From: Escherichia coli
GTDB lineage: Bacteria; Pseudomonadota; Gammaproteobacteria; Enterobacterales; Enterobacteriaceae
DNA: 64,000 nucleotides
Assembly: GCF_044324785.1 (NCBI RefSeq)
Contig: NZ_CP172127.1
Strand: one strand, 5' to 3'
A program made the translations under genes and the position numbers. Shown one piece after another: positions 8,321 through 51,806 of this stretch (within the stretch, counting starts at the first letter, position 1; each line of letters starts with the position of its first letter). Under the pieces are notes generated by a model. The model did not search any database. It worked only from the letters and a program-made list of their open reading frames with translations, and was not told the origin of the DNA.

Positions 8321-9541
8321 ATGACACCAGGCGGACAAGCTCAGATAGGTAATGTTGATCTCGTAAAACAGCTTAACAGCGCGGCGGTTTATCGCCTGAT
8401 TGACCAGTATGGGCCAATCTCGCGGATTCAGATTGCCGAGCAAAGCCAGCTTGCCCCCGCCAGCGTAACCAAAATTACGCGTCAGCTTATCGAACGCGGG
8501 CTGATCAAAGAAGTTGATCAGCAGGCCTCCACCGGGGGCCGCCGCGCTATCTCTATCGTCACCGAAACCCGCAATTTCCACGCAATCGGTGTACGGCTTG
8601 GTCGTCACGACGCCACCATTACTCTGTTCGATCTCAGTAGCAAAGTGCTGGCAGAAGAACATTACCCGCTGCCGGAACGTACCCAGCAGACGCTGGAACA
8701 TGCCCTGCTGAATGCCATTGCTCAGTTTATTGATAGCTACCAGCGCAAGCTGCGCGAGCTGATTGCCATTTCCGTGATCCTGCCAGGGCTTGTTGACCCG
8801 GACAGCGGCAAAATTCATTACATGCCGCATATTCAGGTAGAAAACTGGGGGCTGGTAGAAGCACTGGAAGAGCGTTTTAAAGTGACCTGTTTTGTCGGCC
8901 ACGATATCCGTAGTCTGGCGCTGGCAGAGCACTACTTCGGTGCAAGTCAGGATTGCGAAGACTCCATTTTAGTGCGTGTCCATCGCGGGACCGGGGCAGG
9001 GATTATCTCTAACGGGCGCATTTTTATTGGCCGCAACGGCAACGTCGGTGAAATTGGCCATATTCAGGTCGAACCGCTGGGTGAACGCTGCCATTGCGGC
9101 AACTTTGGCTGCCTGGAAACTATCGCCGCTAACGCTGCCATTGAACAACGGGTATTGAATTTATTAAAGCAGGGCTACCAGAGCCGTGTGCCACTGGACG
9201 ACTGCACCATCAAAACTATCTGCAAAGCCGCGAACAAAGGCGATAGCCTGGCCTCGGAAGTGATTGAGTATGTCGGTCGTCATCTGGGTAAAACCATCGC
9301 CATTGCTATCAACTTATTTAATCCGCAAAAAATTGTCATTGCCGGTGAAATCACCGAAGCCGATAAAGTGCTACTCCCTGCTATCGAAAGCTGCATTAAT
9401 ACTCAGGCACTGAAGGCGTTTCGTACTAATCTACCGGTGGTACGTTCTGAGTTGGATCACCGCTCGGCAATCGGCGCTTTTGCGCTGGTAAAACGCGCCA
9501 TGCTCAACGGTATTTTGCTCCAGCATTTGCTGGAAAATTAA
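8321..9541 (+). CDS. nagC: NagC transcriptional repressor/activator (ROK family)
   Basis: 406-aa ORF, N-terminal HTH, ROK sugar-kinase-like domain with Zn-binding CHCGNFGC. Confidence 0.97.
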   Translation: MTPGGQAQIGNVDLVKQLNSAAVYRLIDQYGPISRIQIAEQSQLAPASVTKITRQLIERGLIKEVDQQASTGGRRAISIVTETRNFHAIGVRLGRHDATITLFDLSSKVLAEEHYPLPERTQQTLEHALLNAIAQFIDSYQRKLRELIAISVILPGLVDPDSGKIHYMPHIQVENWGLVEALEERFKVTCFVGHDIRSLALAEHYFGASQDCEDSILVRVHRGTGAGIISNGRIFIGRNGNVGEIGHIQVEPLGERCHCGNFGCLETIAANAAIEQRVLNLLKQGYQSRVPLDDCTIKTICKAANKGDSLASEVIEYVGRHLGKTIAIAINLFNPQKIVIAGEITEADKVLLPAIESCINTQALKAFRTNLPVVRSELDHRSAIGAFALVKRAMLNGILLQHLLEN

Positions 9542-9588
9542 TGTGCTTTTATAGTGGCGCTTATTGTTGTCAATATTCTGGGTAGTCC

Positions 9589-10341
9589 ATGACCATTAAA
9601 AATGTAATTTGCGATATCGACGGCGTGCTGATGCACGATAACGTCGCCGTACCGGGTGCAGCGGAATTTTTGCACGGGATTATGGATAAAGGCCTGCCGC
9701 TGGTGTTGCTGACCAACTATCCTTCGCAGACCGGGCAAGATCTGGCGAATCGCTTTGCCACTGCCGGTGTCGATGTACCGGATAGCGTGTTTTATACCTC
9801 CGCGATGGCGACCGCCGATTTCCTGCGTCGCCAGGAAGGCAAGAAAGCGTATGTGGTGGGCGAAGGCGCACTGATTCATGAACTGTACAAAGCCGGTTTC
9901 ACTATTACCGATGTGAACCCTGATTTTGTGATTGTTGGCGAAACGCGTTCCTACAACTGGGACATGATGCATAAAGCAGCCTATTTCGTCGCTAACGGTG
10001 CACGCTTTATCGCCACCAACCCGGACACCCACGGGCGCGGTTTTTATCCCGCCTGTGGCGCGTTGTGTGCAGGGATCGAGAAAATCTCCGGGCGCAAACC
10101 GTTCTATGTTGGAAAGCCGAGTCCGTGGATCATCCGCGCGGCATTAAACAAAATGCAGGCGCATTCGGAAGAAACGGTGATTGTCGGCGATAACTTGCGT
10201 ACCGATATTCTGGCGGGCTTCCAGGCCGGTCTGGAGACGATTCTGGTGCTTTCTGGTGTTTCGTCACTCGACGATATCGACAGTATGCCGTTCCGCCCAA
10301 GTTGGATTTACCCATCGGTCGCTGAAATCGACGTTATCTGA
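9589..10341 (+). CDS. nagD: UMP phosphatase NagD/UmpH (HAD superfamily)
   Basis: 250-aa ORF with HAD motif I CDIDGVL; last gene of nagBACD. Confidence 0.95.
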   Translation: MTIKNVICDIDGVLMHDNVAVPGAAEFLHGIMDKGLPLVLLTNYPSQTGQDLANRFATAGVDVPDSVFYTSAMATADFLRRQEGKKAYVVGEGALIHELYKAGFTITDVNPDFVIVGETRSYNWDMMHKAAYFVANGARFIATNPDTHGRGFYPACGALCAGIEKISGRKPFYVGKPSPWIIRAALNKMQAHSEETVIVGDNLRTDILAGFQAGLETILVLSGVSSLDDIDSMPFRPSWIYPSVAEIDVI

Positions 10342-10597
10342 ATAGCAACCACGCCTCAGGGCGTGGTTTCTTATTTTTACCCATCATTAAAATCACCCTA
10401 TTCAATAAAACCCGTCAAAAATTATCGATCCATCAATAAATACGCCACCACACCCTATCCTTTTTCACAAATCAGCAATCGCCATTACGTTTTTTATTTT
10501 TCCACCGCCAAATCGCTTGCGCACAGTGCTGCTTTGCGGCATTTTTTTAAACAAGCAAACACAACAAGCAACAAATACCAGGTTAACGGAGAAGGTT

Positions 10598-12262
10598 ATG
10601 TGTTCAATTTTTGGCGTATTCGATATCAAAACAGACGCAGTTGAGCTGCGTAAGAAAGCACTCGAGCTGTCACGCCTGATGCGTCATCGTGGCCCGGACT
10701 GGTCCGGTATTTATGCCAGCGATAACGCCATTCTCGCCCACGAACGTCTGTCAATTGTTGACGTTAACGCGGGGGCGCAACCTCTCTACAACCAACAAAA
10801 AACTCATGTGCTGGCAGTAAACGGTGAAATCTACAACCACCAGGCATTGCGCGCTGAATATGGCGATCGTTACCAGTTCCAGACCGGGTCTGACTGTGAA
10901 GTGATCCTCGCGCTGTATCAGGAAAAAGGGCCGGAATTTCTCGACGACTTGCAGGGCATGTTTGCCTTTGCCCTGTACGACAGCGAAAAAGATGCATATC
11001 TGATTGGTCGCGACCATCTGGGGATCATCCCACTGTATATGGGCTATGACGAACACGGTCAGCTGTATGTGGCCTCAGAAATGAAAGCCCTCGTGCCAGT
11101 TTGCCGCACGATTAAAGAGTTTCCGGCGGGGAGCTATTTGTGGAGTCAGGACGGCGAAATCCGTTCTTATTATCATCGCGACTGGTTCGACTACGATGCG
11201 GTGAAAGATAACGTGACCGACAAAAACGAGCTGCGTCAGGCACTGGAAGATTCCGTTAAAAGCCATCTGATGTCTGATGTGCCTTACGGTGTGTTGCTTT
11301 CTGGTGGTCTGGATTCCTCAATTATTTCCGCTATCACCAAGAAATACGCCGCCCGTCGCGTGGAAGATCAGGAACGCTCTGAAGCCTGGTGGCCGCAGTT
11401 GCACTCCTTTGCTGTAGGTCTGCCGGGCTCACCGGATCTGAAAGCAGCCCAGGAAGTGGCAAACCATCTGGGCACGGTGCATCACGAAATTCACTTCACT
11501 GTACAGGAAGGTCTGGATGCCATCCGCGACGTGATTTACCACATCGAAACTTATGATGTGACCACTATTCGCGCTTCAACACCGATGTATTTAATGTCGC
11601 GTAAGATCAAGGCGATGGGCATTAAAATGGTGCTGTCCGGTGAAGGTTCTGACGAAGTGTTTGGCGGTTATCTATACTTCCACAAAGCGCCGAACGCTAA
11701 AGAGTTGCATGAAGAGACGGTGCGTAAACTGCTGGCCCTGCATATGTATGACTGCGCGCGTGCCAACAAAGCGATGTCAGCCTGGGGCGTGGAAGCACGC
11801 GTTCCGTTCCTCGACAAAAAATTCCTTGATGTGGCGATGCGCATTAACCCACAGGATAAAATGTGCGGTAACGGCAAAATGGAAAAACACATCCTGCGTG
11901 AATGTTTTGAAGCGTATCTGCCTGCAAGCGTGGCCTGGCGGCAAAAAGAGCAGTTCTCCGATGGCGTCGGTTACAGTTGGATCGACACCCTGAAAGAAGT
12001 GGCAGCACAGCAGGTTTCTGATCAACAGCTGGAAACTGCCCGCTTCCGCTTCCCGTACAACACGCCGACCTCAAAAGAAGCGTATCTGTACCGGGAGATC
12101 TTTGAAGAATTGTTCCCGCTTCCGAGCGCCGCTGAGTGCGTGCCGGGCGGTCCTTCCGTCGCTTGTTCTTCCGCTAAAGCGATTGAGTGGGATGAAGCGT
12201 TCAAGAAAATGGACGATCCGTCTGGTCGCGCGGTTGGCGTTCACCAGTCGGCATATAAATAA
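10598..12262 (+). CDS. asnB: Asparagine synthetase B (glutamine-hydrolysing)
   Basis: 554 aa from internal ATG; N-terminal MCSIFGVF with catalytic Cys2 of class II amidotransferases; track ORF extends 27 codons further upstream. Confidence 0.95.
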   Translation: MCSIFGVFDIKTDAVELRKKALELSRLMRHRGPDWSGIYASDNAILAHERLSIVDVNAGAQPLYNQQKTHVLAVNGEIYNHQALRAEYGDRYQFQTGSDCEVILALYQEKGPEFLDDLQGMFAFALYDSEKDAYLIGRDHLGIIPLYMGYDEHGQLYVASEMKALVPVCRTIKEFPAGSYLWSQDGEIRSYYHRDWFDYDAVKDNVTDKNELRQALEDSVKSHLMSDVPYGVLLSGGLDSSIISAITKKYAARRVEDQERSEAWWPQLHSFAVGLPGSPDLKAAQEVANHLGTVHHEIHFTVQEGLDAIRDVIYHIETYDVTTIRASTPMYLMSRKIKAMGIKMVLSGEGSDEVFGGYLYFHKAPNAKELHEETVRKLLALHMYDCARANKAMSAWGVEARVPFLDKKFLDVAMRINPQDKMCGNGKMEKHILRECFEAYLPASVAWRQKEQFSDGVGYSWIDTLKEVAAQQVSDQQLETARFRFPYNTPTSKEAYLYREIFEELFPLPSAAECVPGGPSVACSSAKAIEWDEAFKKMDDPSGRAVGVHQSAYK

Positions 12263-12641
12263 GACGTGTATTATTGCCCCGGAGAAATCCGGGGCAATTT
12301 CAGTTACTGGGGCGCTTGTTGATTCTGATATGCAGTAAGGAAATGTTCCGGGTTTGCCACATCACTGTTTGACAACTCATCACTGTAGGCCAGTACTTCA
12401 TAGATTAATTTCCCACCACTATTGTTGAATTCCGAATTTCATCCTGTATGACAAAAGAATGGCTGTAGGGTGGGGAAAAAACACAAAGTAAACAATAATT
12501 GACGAATATAGCGCCACGCTGTTCGCAACCTAACCAAACAGTCACTTTCGAGCAATTTTCCTTGAAAAAGAGGTTGACGCTGCAAGGCTCTATACGCATA
12601 ATGCGCCCCGCAACGCCGATAAGGTATCGCGAAAAAAAGAT

Positions 12642-12718
12642 GGCTACGTAGCTCAGTTGGTTAGAGCACATCACTCATAATGATGGGGTCACAGGTTCGA
12701 ATCCCGTCGTAGCCACCA
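12642..12718 (+). tRNA. metT: tRNA-Met (elongator, anticodon CAT)
   Basis: 77 nt GGCTACGTAGCTCAGTTGGTTAGAGCACATCACTCATAATGATGG...CGTAGCCACCA; cloverleaf with CAT anticodon and encoded CCA. Confidence 0.95.
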
Positions 12719-12726
12719 TCTTTTTT

Positions 12727-12811
12727 GCGGGAGTGGCGAAATTGGTAGACGCACCAGATTTAGGTTCTGGCGCCGCAAGGTGTGCGAGTTCAAGTCTCGC
12801 CTCCCGCACCA
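12727..12811 (+). tRNA. leuW: tRNA-Leu (anticodon TAG), long variable arm
   Basis: 85 nt GCGGGAGTGGCGAAATTGGTAGACGCACCAGATTTAGGTTCTGG...CTCCCGCACCA. Confidence 0.95.
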
Positions 12812-12834
12812 TTCACCAGAAAGCGTTGTACGGA

Positions 12835-12909
12835 TGGGGTATCGCCAAGCGGTAAGGCACCGGTTTTTGATACCGGCATTCCCTGGTTCGAATCCAGGTA
12901 CCCCAGCCA
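12835..12909 (+). tRNA. glnU: tRNA-Gln (anticodon TTG)
   Basis: 75 nt TGGGGTATCGCCAAGCGGTAAGGCACCGGTTTTTGATACCGG...CCCCAGCCA; paralog name (glnU vs glnW) ambiguous. Confidence 0.95.
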
Positions 12910-12924
12910 TCGAAGAAACAATCT

Positions 12925-13001
12925 GGCTACGTAGCTCAGTTGGTTAGAGCACATCACTCATAATGATGGGGTCACAGGTTCGAATCCCGTCGTAGCCACC
13001 A
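12925..13001 (+). tRNA. metU: tRNA-Met (elongator, anticodon CAT), identical second copy
   Basis: 77 nt identical to the copy at 12642-12718. Confidence 0.95.
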
Positions 13002-13049
13002 AATTCTGAATGTGTCGAATAAGTTCGGCAAATTCACAAACCAATTTGT

Positions 13050-13124
13050 TGGGGTATCGCCAAGCGGTAAGGCACCGGATTCTGATTCCGGCATTCCGAG
13101 GTTCGAATCCTCGTACCCCAGCCA
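13050..13124 (+). tRNA. glnV: tRNA-Gln (anticodon CTG)
   Basis: 75 nt TGGGGTATCGCCAAGCGGTAAGGCACCGGATTCTGATTCCGG...CCCCAGCCA; paralog name (glnV vs glnX) ambiguous. Confidence 0.95.
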
Positions 13125-13128
13125 CATT

Positions 13129-13160
13129 AAAAAAGCTCGCTTCGGCGAGCTTTTTGCTTT
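13129..13160 (+). terminator. Rho-independent terminator of the tRNA operon
   Basis: AAAAAGCTCGC-TTCG-GCGAGCTTTTTGCTTTT: GC stem, tetraloop, T-run. Confidence 0.8.
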
Positions 13161-13211
13161 TCTGCGTATATTCAATGTCGAATGCGATGTTGACACGTCT
13201 TATCCTTCAAA

Positions 13212-13248
13212 GTCGGATGCGACGCTGACGCGTCTTATCCGACCTACG
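13212..13248. repeat. REP (repetitive extragenic palindrome) element
   Basis: GTCGGATGCGACGCTGACGCGTCTTATCCGACCTACG resembles the E. coli REP consensus; a partial second copy lies just upstream (about 13185-13205). Confidence 0.6.
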
Positions 13249-13277
13249 GTTGGCATGCATCCGGCAATGTTGTAAGG

Positions 13278-14453
13278 CTACAACCCTAACGCATATTTCA
13301 GCGCCTGACGTTTCAACACGCCAGCACGCTCCGCCGCCATCAAACCAAGATTACGCACAAAACGCAGTGGTGGCAGATTATTGCTGAATCCGGCATAAAA
13401 CAGATCCATACCGCTCTGCATAATGAAGTTATCCGCCATGCGCCGCATCTGGTAACGCTTGAGGATCGGATAACTGGCCCACGCTTCGCCATGGCTGCGA
13501 GCGTTGACCAGAACGTCAATCAGGGCATCGACATCACGATAACCAAGATTCACCCCCTGCCCCGCCAGCGGATGAATGGTGTGCGCCGCATCGCCCACCA
13601 GCGCAAGCCCCGGCTGCACATACTGCAACGCATGGCGGCGCGTCAGCGGAAAAGCGCCAGCGGCAAGCGGTGTTACATACCCAAGACGCGACGGGAAATG
13701 CTTCGCGATTTCCGCCTGTAACTGCGCCATATTCATATTCTGCAACTGGCGAATGCGTGCCGGAGAGTCATACCACACCAGCGATGCCCAGTTATCAAAC
13801 AACGGCAGAAACGCACGAGGTCCATCCGGGGTAAATTGCTGCCAGGTGCTGTCGCCGGGATCGTTCTCACACTGTACGCTAATCAACATACACGACTGTG
13901 CATACTGCCAGGCATGAACGCCAATTCCCGCCATCTGCCGCACCTGCGAATTTGCGCCGTCGGCACCAATCACCAGCTTCGCGCGGATCGTTTCACCGCC
14001 CTTCAGTTCCAGCTCCTGAAGATCATTATGGCGATGCAGCGCAATCAGCGAGCCTGGCACACGTAACGTTACTTTCGGATGCGCTTCCAGCGCCTGCCAC
14101 AGCGCCTGTTGCAGGACAGTGTTTTCCACCATGTAGCCAAGCAACGGTAGCTTAAGTTCAGCGGCGTCAAACACCACATGCGCCGTTTCCCACTCCCACG
14201 TTTCCAGTCTGCGGTAGGGATGGCAACGCATAGCCTGTACCGCGTCCCAGACGCCTAAACCTTTAAGCAATGATACCGAAGCCGCGCTGATCGCCGAGAT
14301 CCGCACGTCCGGCTGGCTGTCAGCGACAAACGGTGCAGGTTGGGCATGTTCGATAACCATTACCGAAAATCCGTGCTGAGCCAGTCCCAGCGCCAGTGCG
14401 CCGCCGACCATTCCTCCGCCGACAATGGCAATTTCCGTTGGTTGATTTGTCAT
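13278..14453 (-). CDS. ubiF: Ubiquinone biosynthesis hydroxylase UbiF (FAD-dependent monooxygenase)
   Basis: 391 aa from MTNQPTEIAIVGGGMVGGALA (FAD-binding GxGxxG); track ORF begins 2 codons upstream. Confidence 0.9.
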   Translation of the reverse strand: MTNQPTEIAIVGGGMVGGALALGLAQHGFSVMVIEHAQPAPFVADSQPDVRISAISAASVSLLKGLGVWDAVQAMRCHPYRRLETWEWETAHVVFDAAELKLPLLGYMVENTVLQQALWQALEAHPKVTLRVPGSLIALHRHNDLQELELKGGETIRAKLVIGADGANSQVRQMAGIGVHAWQYAQSCMLISVQCENDPGDSTWQQFTPDGPRAFLPLFDNWASLVWYDSPARIRQLQNMNMAQLQAEIAKHFPSRLGYVTPLAAGAFPLTRRHALQYVQPGLALVGDAAHTIHPLAGQGVNLGYRDVDALIDVLVNARSHGEAWASYPILKRYQMRRMADNFIMQSGMDLFYAGFSNNLPPLRFVRNLGLMAAERAGVLKRQALKYALGL

Positions 14454-14598
14454 GGTCAATCATCCTGTTAGCAATATGCTTTAAGTTTACAGGATTTTTA
14501 CCCCCAAGGGCTGATAACGCTCATACTGGTCACAACGGCAGCAAAGCATTACACTATGCGCCCTGCATTCCTGGCTACTATTTCGCAAGAGCAAGTCG

Positions 14599-16023
14599 AT
14601 GACCAAAAAACTCCATATTAAAACCTGGGGCTGTCAGATGAACGAGTACGATTCATCGAAGATGGCCGATCTGCTGGATGCCACCCACGGCTATCAACTG
14701 ACCGACGTGGCGGAAGAAGCGGATGTGCTGCTGCTGAACACCTGCTCAATCCGCGAGAAGGCTCAGGAAAAAGTCTTCCATCAGTTGGGTCGCTGGAAAC
14801 TGTTAAAAGAGAAGAATCCAGACCTGATTATCGGTGTCGGCGGCTGCGTGGCATCGCAAGAAGGCGAGCACATTCGCCAGCGCGCCCACTATGTCGATAT
14901 TATTTTTGGGCCGCAAACGCTGCACCGTCTGCCGGAGATGATCAACTCCGTGCGCGGCGACCGCAGCCCGGTTGTAGATATCAGCTTCCCGGAAATCGAG
15001 AAGTTTGACCGTCTACCGGAACCGCGCGCCGAAGGGCCGACCGCGTTTGTCTCCATCATGGAAGGCTGCAATAAATATTGTACCTACTGCGTGGTGCCTT
15101 ACACCCGTGGTGAAGAGGTAAGCCGTCCGTCTGACGATATTCTGTTTGAGATTGCCCAGCTTGCGGCTCAGGGCGTGCGTGAAGTCAACCTGCTCGGTCA
15201 GAACGTGAACGCCTGGCGTGGTGAAAACTACGACGGCACCACCGGAACGTTTGCCGATCTGCTGCGTCTGGTTGCGGCGATCGACGGGATCGATCGTATT
15301 CGCTTTACCACCAGCCATCCGATCGAATTCACCGACGATATCATCGAAGTGTACCGCGACACGCCGGAGCTGGTGAGTTTCCTGCATCTGCCGGTACAGA
15401 GCGGTTCCGATCGCATTCTGAACCTGATGGGACGTACCCATACAGCGCTGGAGTACAAAGCGATCATCCGTAAACTGCGTGCGGCGCGTCCGGATATTCA
15501 GATCAGTTCTGACTTCATCGTTGGCTTCCCTGGCGAAACCACCGAAGACTTCGAGAAAACGATGAAGCTGATTGCCGACGTCAATTTCGACATGAGCTAC
15601 AGCTTTATCTTCTCTGCACGTCCGGGTACGCCAGCCGCCGATATGGTTGATGATGTTCCGGAAGAAGAGAAGAAGCAGCGTCTGTATATTCTGCAAGAAC
15701 GTATTAATCAGCAAGCGATGGCATGGAGCCGCCGGATGCTCGGCACCACCCAGCGTATTCTGGTAGAAGGTACATCGCGTAAGAGCATCATGGAGCTTTC
15801 CGGTCGCACTGAAAATAACCGCGTGGTCAACTTTGAAGGCACGCCAGATATGATCGGTAAATTCGTCGATGTAGAAATTACCGACGTCTACCCGAACTCT
15901 CTGCGCGGTAAAGTGGTGCGTACTGAAGATGAAATGGGTCTGCGCGTGGCAGAAACACCCGAATCGGTGATTGCCCGTACCCGCAAAGAAAACGACCTTG
16001 GCGTGGGTTATTATCAGCCGTAA
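14599..16023 (+). CDS. miaB: tRNA i6A37 methylthiotransferase MiaB (radical SAM)
   Basis: 474-aa ORF; radical-SAM CNKYCTYC motif, N-terminal MTTase domain, C-terminal TRAM. Confidence 0.96.
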
Positions 16024-16175
16024 TTCTCAGGCCTGCCGTTCCGGTGGGCCTTGTTTTTTCTCTCTTTATCCCCATCTTTATCGCAATGCTTGCGCCTTTT
16101 TCCTGTGGCGTGAATAATTTCCTTATAGGCCGGTGAATGTTCAGCTTCCGGCGGCATACAGATAAGAGGAACGGT

Positions 16176-17216
16176 TTGAACATAGACACTCGCGAAATCA
16201 CTCTGGAGCCAGCAGACAACGCACGTCTGTTGAGCCTGTGCGGCCCGTTTGATGACAACATCAAACAACTCGAACGCCGTCTCGGCATCGAGATCAATCG
16301 CCGCGATAACCACTTTAAACTGACCGGCCGTCCGATTTGCGTCACCGCTGCGGCAGACATTCTGCGTAGCCTGTATGTCGATACTGCCCCGATGCGCGGT
16401 CAGATTCAGGATATTGAACCGGAACAGATCCACCTTGCGATTAAAGAAGCGCGAGTACTGGAGCAAAGCGCGGAGAGCGTGCCGGAGTACGGCAAAGCGG
16501 TCAATATCAAAACCAAACGCGGCGTAATCAAGCCGCGCACGCCAAACCAGGCGCAGTACATTGCCAATATTCTCGACCATGACATCACCTTCGGCGTTGG
16601 CCCGGCGGGTACGGGTAAAACCTACCTGGCAGTGGCTGCGGCAGTTGATGCCCTGGAGCGTCAGGAAATTCGCCGTATTCTGCTGACTCGTCCGGCGGTC
16701 GAAGCCGGTGAGAAACTGGGCTTCCTGCCTGGCGATTTAAGCCAGAAAGTAGACCCGTATCTGCGCCCACTGTACGACGCGCTGTTTGAAATGCTGGGCT
16801 TTGAGAAAGTCGAGAAACTGATTGAGCGCAACGTTATTGAAGTCGCGCCGCTGGCCTATATGCGTGGTCGTACGCTGAACGACGCGTTTATCATTCTCGA
16901 TGAGAGCCAGAACACCACCATCGAACAGATGAAGATGTTCCTGACCCGTATCGGTTTTAACTCAAAAGCGGTTATCACCGGCGACGTCACACAGATCGAC
17001 CTGCCGCGTAATACCAAGTCAGGCTTGCGTCACGCCATCGAAGTGCTGGCCGATGTTGAAGAGATCAGCTTTAACTTCTTCCACAGCGAAGACGTGGTTC
17101 GTCACCCGGTGGTGGCGCGTATCGTTAACGCTTATGAAGCCTGGGAAGAAGCAGAACAAAAACGTAAAGCGGCGCTGGCAGCAGAACGCAAGCGCGAAGA
17201 ACAGGAACAAAAATGA
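16176..17216 (+). CDS. ybeZ: PhoH-like ATPase YbeZ
   Basis: 346 aa from TTG start ([11 protein letters not shown]...); Walker A GPAGTGKT; 4-nt overlap with ybeY. Confidence 0.88.
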
Positions 17217-17680
17217 GTCAGGTGATCCTCGATTTACAACTGGCATGTGAAGATAATTCCGGGTTACCGGAAGAGAGCCAGTTTCAAACATGGCTGAATG
17301 CGGTGATCCCGCAGTTTCAGGAGGAATCGGAAGTGACGATTCGCGTGGTCGATACCGCCGAAAGCCACAGTCTGAATCTGACCTATCGCGGTAAGGATAA
17401 GCCGACCAACGTGCTCTCCTTCCCGTTTGAAGTGCCGCCTGGAATGGAGATGTCGCTACTGGGCGATCTGGTTATCTGCCGTCAGGTGGTTGAGAAGGAA
17501 GCACAGGAGCAAGGCAAACCACTGGAGGCGCACTGGGCGCATATGGTGGTGCACGGCAGTCTGCATTTGTTAGGTTACGATCACATCGAAGATGACGAAG
17601 CAGAAGAAATGGAAGCCCTCGAAACAGAGATTATGCTTGCTCTGGGCTATGAGGATCCGTACATTGCCGAGAAAGAATAA
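17213..17680 (+). CDS. ybeY: Endoribonuclease YbeY (16S rRNA maturation)
   Basis: 155-aa ORF with metal-binding [11 protein letters not shown] motif. Confidence 0.95.
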
Positions 17681-17769
17681 TTTGCCAGGCATTTGACTGG
17701 CAGATGTCCCCGCCGTTGGTGATTAACGACGGCGTTTTGATTAACTAACATGAGAACCCATACGACGCC

Positions 17770-18648
17770 ATGAGCGACGACAATTCACACAGTAGTGACA
17801 CGATAAGCAACAAGAAGGGATTTTTCTCCCTGTTACTCAGCCAACTTTTCCACGGTGAACCGAAAAACCGTGACGAACTGCTGGCGCTGATCCGTGATTC
17901 CGGGCAGAACGACCTTATCGACGAAGATACGCGCGATATGCTCGAAGGGGTGATGGACATCGCAGACCAACGCGTCCGCGACATCATGATCCCCCGCTCC
18001 CAGATGATTACCCTGAAACGCAACCAGACGCTGGACGAATGCCTTGATGTCATCATCGAGTCCGCCCACTCACGTTTCCCGGTGATTAGCGAAGACAAAG
18101 ATCACATTGAAGGGATTCTGATGGCGAAAGACTTGCTGCCGTTTATGCGCAGCGATGCTGAAGCCTTCAGCATGGACAAAGTGTTACGTCAGGCGGTTGT
18201 CGTTCCTGAAAGTAAGCGCGTAGACCGGATGCTGAAAGAGTTTCGCTCTCAGCGTTACCACATGGCGATCGTCATTGACGAATTCGGTGGGGTTTCCGGT
18301 CTGGTGACCATTGAAGACATCCTGGAACTGATTGTTGGTGAGATTGAAGACGAGTATGACGAAGAAGATGATATCGACTTCCGTCAGCTGAGTCGTCATA
18401 CCTGGACCGTGCGCGCACTGGCTTCCATTGAAGACTTCAACGAAGCCTTCGGCACCCACTTTAGCGATGAAGAGGTTGACACTATCGGTGGTCTGGTGAT
18501 GCAGGCATTTGGGCATCTTCCGGCGCGTGGCGAAACTATCGACATCGACGGTTACCAGTTCAAAGTGGCGATGGCCGACAGTCGGCGTATTATTCAGGTT
18601 CATGTCAAAATCCCGGATGACTCACCCCAGCCGAAGCTGGATGAATAA
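17770..18648 (+). CDS. corC: CorC/YbeX, CBS-domain Mg/Co efflux-associated protein
   Basis: 292-aa ORF with tandem CBS domains and C-terminal CorC/HlyC domain. Confidence 0.93.
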
Positions 18649-20290: not shown

Positions 20291-20607
20291 AAAATTCCCC
20301 TATCCAACTTTGGCACATCTATTGCTTTGTTATACAAGGCAAAGCTTGAACCAGCATCAGTACAACCCGATTGCACCACAGCAATCCACGGGTAGCACCA
20401 AAAGAGTGCATTTTAAGAATTTTGCTTCGGAATGGTGCGGCGCATCTCGCAAAAACAAACAATAAAACATCAATATCTTTACATTTAGCCAAACTAAATG
20501 TTACCTAACAAGCACAACACTGCACAATAAAGTTGCAGATGATAACAACACAAACACTCACAACGGGTATCCATGCGTTCTTAACGCAGAAGATAAAGGA
20601 GTTGGAT

Positions 20608-21516
20608 ATGCAATTACGTAAACCTGCCACAGCAATCCTGGCCCTGGCGCTTTCCGCAGGACTGGCACAGGCAGATGACGCCGCCCCGGCAGCGGGCAGT
20701 ACTCTGGACAAAATCGCCAAAAACGGTGTGATTGTCGTCGGTCACCGTGAATCTTCAGTGCCTTTCTCTTATTACGACAATCAGCAAAAAGTGGTGGGTT
20801 ACTCGCAGGATTACTCCAACGCCATTGTTGAAGCAGTGAAAAAGAAACTCAACAAACCGGACTTGCAGGTAAAACTGATTCCGATTACCTCACAAAACCG
20901 TATTCCGCTGCTGCAAAACGGCACTTTTGATTTTGAATGTGGCTCTACCACCAACAACGTCGAACGCCAAAAACAGGCGGCTTTCTCTGACACTATTTTC
21001 GTGGTCGGTACGCGCCTGCTGACCAAAAAGGGCGGCGATATCAAAGATTTTGCCGACCTGAAAGGCAAAGCCGTAGTCGTCACTTCCGGCACTACCTCTG
21101 AAGTTTTGCTCAACAAATTGAATGAAGAGCAAAAAATGAATATGCGCATCATCAGCGCCAAAGATCACGGTGACTCTTTCCGCACCCTGGAAAGCGGTCG
21201 TGCTGTTGCCTTTATGATGGATGACGCTCTGCTGGCCGGTGAACGTGCGAAAGCGAAGAAACCAGACAACTGGGATATCGTCGGCAAGCCGCAGTCTCAG
21301 GAAGCCTACGGTTGCATGTTGCGTAAAGATGATCCGCAGTTCAAAAAGCTGATGGATGACACCATCGCGCAGGTGCAGACCTCCGGTGAAGCGGAAAAAT
21401 GGTTTGATAAGTGGTTTAAAAATCCCATTCCGCCGAAAAACCTGAACATGAATTTCGAGCTGTCAGACGAAATGAAAGCACTGTTCAAAGAACCGAATGA
21501 TAAGGCACTGAACTAA
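20608..21516 (+). CDS. gltI: Glutamate/aspartate periplasmic binding protein
   Basis: 302 aa from MQLRKPATAILALALSAGLAQA (signal peptide); track ORF extends 25 codons upstream. Confidence 0.93.
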   Translation: MQLRKPATAILALALSAGLAQADDAAPAAGSTLDKIAKNGVIVVGHRESSVPFSYYDNQQKVVGYSQDYSNAIVEAVKKKLNKPDLQVKLIPITSQNRIPLLQNGTFDFECGSTTNNVERQKQAAFSDTIFVVGTRLLTKKGGDIKDFADLKGKAVVVTSGTTSEVLLNKLNEEQKMNMRIISAKDHGDSFRTLESGRAVAFMMDDALLAGERAKAKKPDNWDIVGKPQSQEAYGCMLRKDDPQFKKLMDDTIAQVQTSGEAEKWFDKWFKNPIPPKNLNMNFELSDEMKALFKEPNDKALN

Positions 21517-21674
21517 TTACAAGAACCAGGGGCGGAAATTCCAGCCCTCTCGATTGTTACGTAGCACGGACAGACTATACGCCTGATGGTCGTTCCCCAT
21601 CGGGCCTGAAAACCGCAATACGCTGGGTAACAATCTTCGAGGGTAGCAGTTAACGCTGCTACCCTCTTTTTTCT
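21512..21674 (+). ncRNA. sroC: SroC sRNA region (processed from the gltI 3' end/gltI-gltJ spacer) including intrinsic terminator
   Basis: Conserved spacer ending in GAGGGTAGCAG-TTAAC-GCTGCTACCCTC+TTTTTT hairpin at 21640-21674; location matches the known SroC locus. Confidence 0.6.
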
Positions 21675-50813: not shown

Positions 50814-50844
50814 CAAAAAAACCCGCTGATTAAGCGGGTTTTGA
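50814..50844. terminator. Bidirectional terminator between crcB and cspE
   Basis: AAAAAAACCCGCT-GATTA-AGCGGGTTTTG. Confidence 0.8.
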
Positions 50845-50861
50845 ATTCTTGCTGACGTATC

Positions 50862-51071
50862 TTACAGAGCGATTACGTTTGCAGCAGAAGGGCCTTTGGC
50901 ACCGTTAGTGATTTCGAACTCTACGCGCTGACCTTCAGCAAGAGTTTTAAAACCATTAGTCTGGATTGCAGAGAAGTGTACGAACACGTCTTTGCTGCCG
51001 TCTTCCGGAGTAATGAAACCGAATCCTTTGGACTCATTAAACCACTTAACGTTACCTTTAATCTTAGACAT
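50862..51071 (-). CDS. cspE: Cold-shock-like protein CspE
   Basis: 69 aa [20 protein letters not shown]... (RNP1 motif); track ORF extends upstream to an alternative start. Confidence 0.95.
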
Positions 51072-51245
51072 CAAAATTACCTTTACATGAAAAATAGACA
51101 CAAATGCTGTGTCGGTTACCAGTACACCAATTGTGGTACGCTTTGTCCAGTGCAACTTTACTAAAAAGTGATAAAAGTCGCGTTATTTTTGATGTTACTT
51201 ATTTTAGTTATTGATTTTAAAGAAGTTACTAAAACTTCATTTGTC

Positions 51246-51806
51246 TCAAAACTGAAAGCGCATCCAGGCAAAGTACACATTGCCATTGTTGTAGGTACCC
51301 GGAATGTAGGTCATCTGAAAAGTCACTGGACCATAACCCACAGAGGCCAATGGCAGTAGAACCGGGAGAGGGATGTAATTCCAGTTATCGCGTGCCGTTA
51401 CGCCAGCGGTGAATCCCAGACCTAAATGAAAATTTTCATCCGCCAGCGGTCGCCAGGTACTTTCCCATCCGTATCCGGCAATCGGTTCCCATTTGTTCCA
51501 CGAGTCCTTAAATGCCATGGCATACAGGCCATGCCAGTTTCCTTTTTCATCCCAACGCGACAGGCCAAAACCGCCACCCCACGGTCGCTCGTTATAGCGA
51601 TCGGTTTTTTCTTTGTCGTAAGCGAAACGTGCATGCCAGGTGATGGCAGGAATATATAAATCATAATGTTCAGGCTGTTGCCAGGTTTGTGCAATATTTT
51701 CTCTAAACGTTGTCATCCACTCATCTGCGTTAGCAAAAACTTTACCAACGCTGATTAACTGAATAAAAACAAAGGAAAAGATAGCGACATATTTACTCAC
51801 GTTCAT
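51246..51806 (-). CDS. pagP: Lipid A palmitoyltransferase PagP (CrcA)
   Basis: 186 aa from [25 protein letters not shown] (signal peptide); outer-membrane beta-barrel ending ...RFQF. Confidence 0.93.

Follow-up and report, generated by a model that had tools for sequence, protein, structure and literature searches.

A metT tRNA operon with single copies of both tandem glutamine tRNA genes in an Escherichia coli genome record

Results

Organization of the locus

The window analysed here is the whole stretch of 64,000 nucleotides of Escherichia coli DNA taken from contig NZ_CP172127.1 (assembly GCF_044324785.1). Over these 64 kb ARAGORN finds exactly five tRNA genes, all on the plus strand, and the Rfam tRNA model marks the same five sites with scores of 57.6–71.1 bits against a gathering score of 29. 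The first gene is a tRNA-Met(CAU) gene equivalent to metT of K-12 (12642–12718) and is followed by a tRNA-Leu(UAG) gene equivalent to leuW (12727–12811), both being the same as their K-12 counterparts, and by a single tRNA-Gln(UUG) gene (12835–12909) that stands in place of glnU and glnW. A second tRNA-Met(CAU) gene, which the alignment with K-12 also identifies as the metU equivalent (12925–13001), precedes a single tRNA-Gln(CUG) gene (13050–13124) in place of glnV and glnX. The first-pass annotation had placed five tRNA genes at 12642–13124 between asnB and ubiF, and these coordinates are exact. Both tRNA-Met genes are identical over their 77 nt, and the two tRNA-Gln genes share 68 of 75 positions. 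According to ARAGORN the window contains no other tandem tRNA array.

As in K-12 the operon lies on the strand of asnB, between asnB and ubiF. The upstream flank, asnB, codes for asparagine synthetase B (10598–12262, plus strand, 554 aa, 100% identical to AsnB of K-12), and the downstream flank, ubiF, is convergent (13278–14453, minus strand, 391 aa) and differs from UbiF of K-12 by 8 substitutions (98% identity). A consensus scan predicts a sigma-70 promoter for the operon at 12574–12602 on the plus strand (TTGACG-17 nt-CATAAT, 10/12), followed by a GC-rich discriminator; in the alignment this sequence, whose function as promoter is deduced from its letters, is identical in K-12 and other E. 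coli. Downstream of the last tRNA gene a terminator scan yields a Rho-independent terminator at 13130–13165 on the plus strand, consisting of a hairpin with 11 pairs and a loop of 4 (13130–13155) and a T-tract. Its sequence aligns without a difference to K-12, where the terminator of the metT operon has been characterised experimentally and where the operon is made as one transcript, with processing by RNase P after RNase E has removed the terminator (PMC2241853).

Some length variation is found in the non-coding parts of the locus. The homopolymer upstream of metT (12634–12640) has seven A residues in the window, eight in K-12 and nine in GF60, and the gap between metT and leuW (12719–12726) contains six or seven T residues depending on the strain. 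In many E. coli an insertion of ∼434 bp is located between asnB and metT (L003 505–942, L125 4707–5144, L137 6314–6751), encoding a hypothetical ORF of 145 aa with no Pfam match. K-12 and the window (12263–12641) lack this insertion.

Comparison with the seven-gene operon of K-12

The first-pass annotation correctly gave seven genes for the K-12 operon, and the alignment with K-12 that it proposed reveals the window to be this seven-gene operon minus one 109-bp and one 112-bp unit, that is, five genes and 221 bp less. The first gap comprises one Gln(UUG) gene and the 34-nt glnU–glnW spacer, the second one Gln(CUG) gene and the 37-nt glnV–glnX spacer. Both gaps are exactly one repeat period long and are situated inside perfectly identical sequence, as each Gln pair of K-12 contains a 77-bp perfectly identical stretch that recurs with a period of 109 or 112 bp. 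The contraction junctions are somewhere in the stretches 12835–12911 and 13048–13124, with BLAST segment boundaries at 12911 and 13048, and because of the 77-bp identity within the pairs they cannot be placed more finely than this. The outer spacers (leuW–Gln, Gln–metU, metU–Gln, and Gln–terminator) are kept, all tRNA columns are invariant between the window and K-12, and nothing else substantial is missing. Thus position, promoter, terminator, gene order, and tRNA sequences are those of the K-12 metT operon, but the window has one copy per Gln isoacceptor where K-12 has two, and it departs in this from the canonical seven-gene content.

The lineage of the window

Along its entire 64 kb the window is collinear with K-12, with 96.7–98.3% identity, and it is devoid of the IS5 element (IS5D) which K-12 carries between gltI and lnt (∼20504–20508 in the window). 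Escherichia whittamii is equidistant from the window and K-12 (95.6%). A 25-kb similarity query gave a misleading ranking, as seven-gene genomes were split at the operon, and was repeated with a query free of the operon; the closest complete RefSeq E. coli then has 98.8% identity over 16.8 kb, and none of the 5,426 complete RefSeq E. coli genomes is a closer relative than that. Judged by these identities, the window is E. coli in the broad sense and not K-12, and its lineage is absent from the complete RefSeq collection. That the DNA is not from K-12 had already been concluded from the number of tRNA genes. The conclusion stands on the identity values and the missing IS5, whereas the gene count is weak evidence for it because ECCTRSRTH03, whose flanks are K-12-like, and the K-12 derivative MC1061 also have reduced operons.

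When compared with L003, L137, and L138, the window shows a mosaic of divergence between positions 9499–12392 and 12388–18453. In GF60 and two other E. coli the identity to the window is 98.7–98.9% towards ubiF and only 95–96% towards asnB, which suggests that a recombination event ended in or close to the tRNA operon.

Clone-mates were retrieved by the exact UbiF and DjlB proteins of the window; the exact AsnB protein was uninformative as a lineage marker, being identical across much of E. coli. The DjlB allele of the window occurs in ∼400 index blocks, and the clone is represented by draft and WGS assemblies only. It is very tight, with 0–1 SNP per 9–21 kb between the window and several public draft assemblies, for example, 1 mismatch in 21,428 bp for L147. 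The flanks of L135 are 100.0% identical to the window over 8,819 bp and those of L136 and L140 are 99.99% identical (8.8 kb), and all three have seven genes. Within the operon segment they differ from the window by nothing but the 109-bp and the 112-bp gap, with 0 SNPs, and L135 carries both internal spacers, TCTTCTTCGAGTAAGCGGTTCACCGCCCGGTTAT between glnU and glnW and ATTTATTCAAGACGCTTACCTTGTAAGTGCACCCAGT between glnV and glnX. As these seven-gene clone-mates have no SNP, the five-gene state is specific to the record of the window and is not typical of its lineage.

A further clone-mate, L139, has eight genes, with one extra 112-bp unit as the only difference in the operon. This assembly (GCA_028598205.1, L139/L149) is a noisy long-read assembly with 12 gap openings per 21 kb relative to the window and with missing calls for leuS, ybeQ, and gltL, so that its extra Gln(CUG) unit is of uncertain reliability. 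The short-read assemblies of the clone L141–L143 end inside the operon. An 87-aa spurious ORF is possible only in forms with a single Gln(CUG) gene, and a lookup of this ORF for five-gene clone members found none on record.

The operon in the Enterobacterales

A scan with one genome per species recovered the operon from about 120 Enterobacterales, and in 101 of them it is not cut by a contig end. Seven genes are the majority state (62/101). Two Gln(UUG) genes with one Gln(CUG) gene are found in 13 operons, the reverse combination of one Gln(UUG) and two Gln(CUG) genes in 11, eight genes in 7, and other architectures in 6. Just 2 of the 101 have five genes, those of E. whittamii (L077) and of a Pluralibacter MAG (L051); Enterobacter sp. 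kpr-6 (L118) has the five-gene form as well, with the locus cut at its right end.

The internal spacers allow the direction of change to be read. The K-12 glnU–glnW spacer is homologous in Salmonella, Citrobacter, Kluyvera, Enterobacter, and Klebsiella (our count of other genera is six), with 25–30 of 34–38 positions identical between genera and 0 of 500 shuffles reaching the score, and the glnV–glnX spacer is homologous in four other genera by the same shuffle test (0/500). Salmonella, Citrobacter, Kluyvera, and Enterobacter share both spacers with Escherichia. Both Gln pairs are therefore older than these genera, and on this comparison seven genes is the ancestral state, from which the five-gene form arose by secondary loss.

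Smaller operons also exist as the common state of whole genera. All five Erwinia species have one Gln(UUG) and two Gln(CUG) genes, and Serratia, Buttiauxella, and Chimaeribacter have two Gln(UUG) genes and one Gln(CUG) gene. Like in the window whole repeat units have been lost from the same tandem pairs, but only one unit is lost in these genera, and the six-gene state, being shared by several species within a genus, is a real and inherited one.

Two further observations concern the spacers. The glnU–glnW spacer of K-12 and other genera can be drawn as a small hairpin with compensatory-looking changes in the stem (GCGGTTCACCGC, GCGGATTGCCGC, GCGGTTCTCCGC), which may be a processing signal. Citrobacter amalonaticus (L069) and Trabulsiella odontotermitis (L048) have degenerate tandem fragments in the spacers around the Gln(CUG) genes; at their start these resemble the 5′ half of tRNA-Gln, a similarity that is lost further on (e.g., TGGGGTATCTCCAGGCTGTAAGGCACCGGGCTGAGTCCGGCACGAGATACGAGACGGTATAAT), and ARAGORN calls no tRNA in them.

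Reduced operons among complete E. coli genomes

The two Gln–Gln junctions of K-12 were used as queries against the 5,426 complete E. coli genomes. Both junctions are present in 5,210 genomes (96%); another 188 have one of them and 28 have neither, so that a reduced metT operon occurs in about 4% of the complete genomes. Exactly five genes are found in at least 15 genomes, and some operons are reduced further. No more than 4.5% of the genomes lack either junction, for which independence predicts at most about 3 double losses, and double losses are several-fold commoner than this.

The five-gene operon is not new to public genomes and belongs to a known type of variation. The public five-gene records (IPCEC31, GF60, ECCTRSRTH03, STK39-3-E, FDAARGOS_1077, others, and E. 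whittamii Sa2BVA5) have the same architecture and the same junction anatomy as the window, but other flank alleles, which are 96–98.9% identical to those of the window. For two of them the closest relatives were inspected. All 60 of 60 genomes with flanks 100% identical to those of IPCEC31 have seven genes. ECCTRSRTH03 has the flanks of K-12 except for one mismatch, and among the 60 top-ranked genomes that match it exactly over 8 kb, itself included, 58 have seven genes and one has eight. Each of the two five-gene genomes tested thus stands alone among its nearest relatives, with no five-gene clade around it. The eight-gene form is also found in JKHS016.

Assembly errors at tandem tRNA arrays

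The metT operon is experimentally essential as a unit in MG1655, and leuW, glnUW, and glnVX are each the sole gene or genes for their own anticodon (PMC11480407). Nevertheless, leuW is absent from the whole genome in 13 of the 5,426 complete E. coli genomes, and given the essentiality of the operon some of these "complete" assemblies are demonstrably wrong at this locus. In the assembly of MC1061 the metT locus consists of a Met and a Gln(CUG) gene only, N18-04097 retains Met-Leu-Gln(UUG)-Gln(CUG), and in CEA224S there is no tRNA gene between asnB and ubiF. The seven most severely reduced records are five with Met + Gln, IAL7250 with this form and a second Gln (Met + Gln ×2), and CEA224S with none. 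The Met + Gln form of the five records is the shortest path through a graph in which identical genes are merged. We consider that NZ_CP195014.1 (L144, L154), NZ_CP166080.1 (L145), and the records without leuW are probably mis-assemblies in RefSeq. MC1061, CEA224S, GF47, AVS0947, and IPCEC48 show the same unit-precise loss of repeated tRNA genes at the metT locus as the window, but they lose the essential leuW or Gln(UUG) and cannot be real, whereas the form of the window would be viable. Reduced operons are concentrated in a few sequencing projects: GF, AVS, IPCEC, and CEA account for 10 of the 15 genomes with five genes and for 4 of the 7 records with the strongest reduction. A literature search for the accessions of the sister assemblies and the strain names of these over-represented projects returned nothing relevant.

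The unlinked array glyV–glyX–glyY, with three copies in K-12, served as an independent test. Counting of its junctions was dropped, as its two spacers are nearly identical, and a spread sample defined by the flanks only was used. In this evenly spread sample three copies are found in 56 of 59 genomes, two copies in 2, and four copies in 1; of the two-copy genomes, SL112 also has a shortened metT operon. When records with a reduced metT operon were tested directly, MC1061 (Met + Gln(CUG) only) had one copy and ECCTRSRTH03 (five genes) two copies, and STK39-3-E and IPCEC31 (both five genes) had three. Two of four directed tests were thus positive against a base rate of ∼3%, an indication that collapse is genome-wide in a sizeable fraction of the reduced assemblies, though not in every one. 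The glyVXY array is also polymorphic in its own right: a common variant has a spacer of ∼157 nt between two Gly genes (L157/L158, L160) and a locus span of ∼1,620 bp compared to 1,499 bp, and two-copy and four-copy forms also occur.

Discussion

The alignment leaves two agents that could have produced the five-gene operon, the cell and the assembler. They are not separable from the sequence because both act via the 77-bp identity and give the same product. The first-pass annotation had explained the short operon by recombination between tandem identical tRNA genes, and the window is indeed the product that is expected from such an event; the collapse of repeats by the assembler, which yields the same letters, is a possibility that it missed.

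We suggest, with modest confidence, that the contraction is an assembly collapse of the tandem repeats rather than an event in the cell. Each missing unit would have been lost through the 77-bp identity between its two tandem copies. In an assembly graph both copies of each Gln gene would merge into one node, the internal Gln–Gln spacer would form a small loop on this node, and a path skipping both loops would yield exactly the sequence of the window. Consistent with this are the unit-precise gaps, the intact outer spacers, and the tRNA gene sequences that otherwise equal those of K-12. We infer the assembler as the cause because the contraction affects both pairs, seven genes are present in the clone-mates with zero SNPs, no five-gene clade that would indicate inheritance turned up around the two genomes tested, and artefacts of this type are proven in other records. 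The excess of double losses, the contraction of glyVXY in MC1061 and ECCTRSRTH03, the concentration of reduced operons in a few projects, and the short-read assemblies of the clone that stop within the operon count in the same direction. Several observations speak against a collapse. In other respects the assembly of the window is of high quality, and it extends across the operon; the window agrees with its clone-mates base for base, contains no N, and is free of frameshifts in the 28 genes compared. In addition, STK39-3-E and IPCEC31 have five genes and yet three glyVXY copies, so not every five-gene record shows genome-wide collapse, and the copy number has changed for real in evolution, as in Erwinia and in Serratia, Buttiauxella, and Chimaeribacter.

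The main alternative is a real, very recent, and strain-specific double deletion by unequal homologous recombination or replication slippage between the tandem Gln genes. We regard it as a serious possibility, though as one that we tend not to believe. Gaps of one repeat period with junctions within 77-bp identical stretches are what such deletions would leave behind, the duplicated state from which they would start is ancestral (homologous spacers, seven genes in 62 of 101 operons), and expansions, as expected of an unstable array, are also seen (L139, JKHS016, and 7 of 101 species operons). The stable differences in copy number between genera, the accuracy of the window assembly elsewhere, and the two five-gene records without glyVXY contraction point in the same direction. 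The seven genes of E. coli W are down to six in its laboratory descendant LY180, which may be a real loss on a laboratory scale; in the LY180 family glyVXY is contracted too, and the derived assemblies share coordinates and may not be independent. Furthermore, the loss of redundant tRNA copies is tolerated: in E. coli, deletions of other redundant tRNA copies slow growth in rich media, whereas in poor media they have no effect or are of advantage (PMC9981150). With every essential isoacceptor still encoded, the five-gene form would be viable. On the other hand, a real deletion needs two independent events in a clone with 0 SNPs to seven-gene sisters, and the excess of double losses is several times what independence allows. 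The variant is also not inherited, as the clone-mates have seven or eight genes and the two tested five-gene genomes stand alone, and in other records products of the same appearance have been proven to be artefacts.

Should the contraction be real, the operon would still function, as the promoter, the terminator, and every isoacceptor are retained, and the gene dosage of glutamine tRNA would be halved with the UUG:CUG ratio kept at 1:1. By analogy with the other redundant tRNA copies, the strain would then be expected to grow more slowly in rich media and equally well or better in poor media. One could go further and regard the two Gln pairs as a fast reversible dosage switch that toggles between five, seven, and eight genes in one clone, with the coordinated loss of both units being repeatedly selected, for example, by slow growth in nutrient-poor niches. 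Such a switch would explain the excess of double losses; we consider it improbable. In Pseudomonas fluorescens SBW25 tRNA gene copy number is flexible via tandem duplication (PMC7661048, PMC10954465), and, as would hold for the window, this is a change of tRNA dosage by repeat-mediated rearrangement on short time scales. However, the changes in SBW25 are large-scale gains observed experimentally under selection, whereas the change in the window would be a loss of units of ∼110 bp. Tandem tRNA genes are already known to be gained and lost, and biologically the contraction described here matters little. The practical consequence is that tRNA gene counts from assemblies, even "complete" ones, are unreliable at tandem arrays, and that comparisons of tRNA copy number should be verified against reads.

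It is very unlikely that the five-gene operon is an allele typical of the lineage, or that recombination brought it in from a donor with five genes, for example, a strain resembling E. whittamii. Recombination boundaries do occur at the operon, as the mosaic of GF60 demonstrates (98.9% identity to the window on the ubiF side vs 95.1% on the asnB side). But E. whittamii is just 95.6% identical and its spacers differ, and the seven-gene sisters share every unique base of the operon, including the lineage-specific metU–Gln(CUG) spacer. We therefore reject this origin, as clone-mates with the same unique bases have seven genes.

The first-pass annotation had described the operon as collapsed or never expanded. 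The unit-precise gaps bear out the first description; the second, that the lineage of the window never duplicated its Gln genes, has the five-gene forms of E. whittamii, the Pluralibacter MAG, and Enterobacter sp. kpr-6 in its favour, but it is practically untenable and is rejected in view of the glnU–glnW and glnV–glnX spacers homologous in six and four other genera, the seven-gene majority among the complete Enterobacterales operons, and the clone-mates with zero SNPs that carry both internal spacers.

Outside the tRNA operon, Rfam finds a full-length sroC at 21512–21674 on the plus strand of the window and a match to the cspA thermoregulator at 50814–51256 on the minus strand, which lies over the cspE region as placed by its K-12 position.
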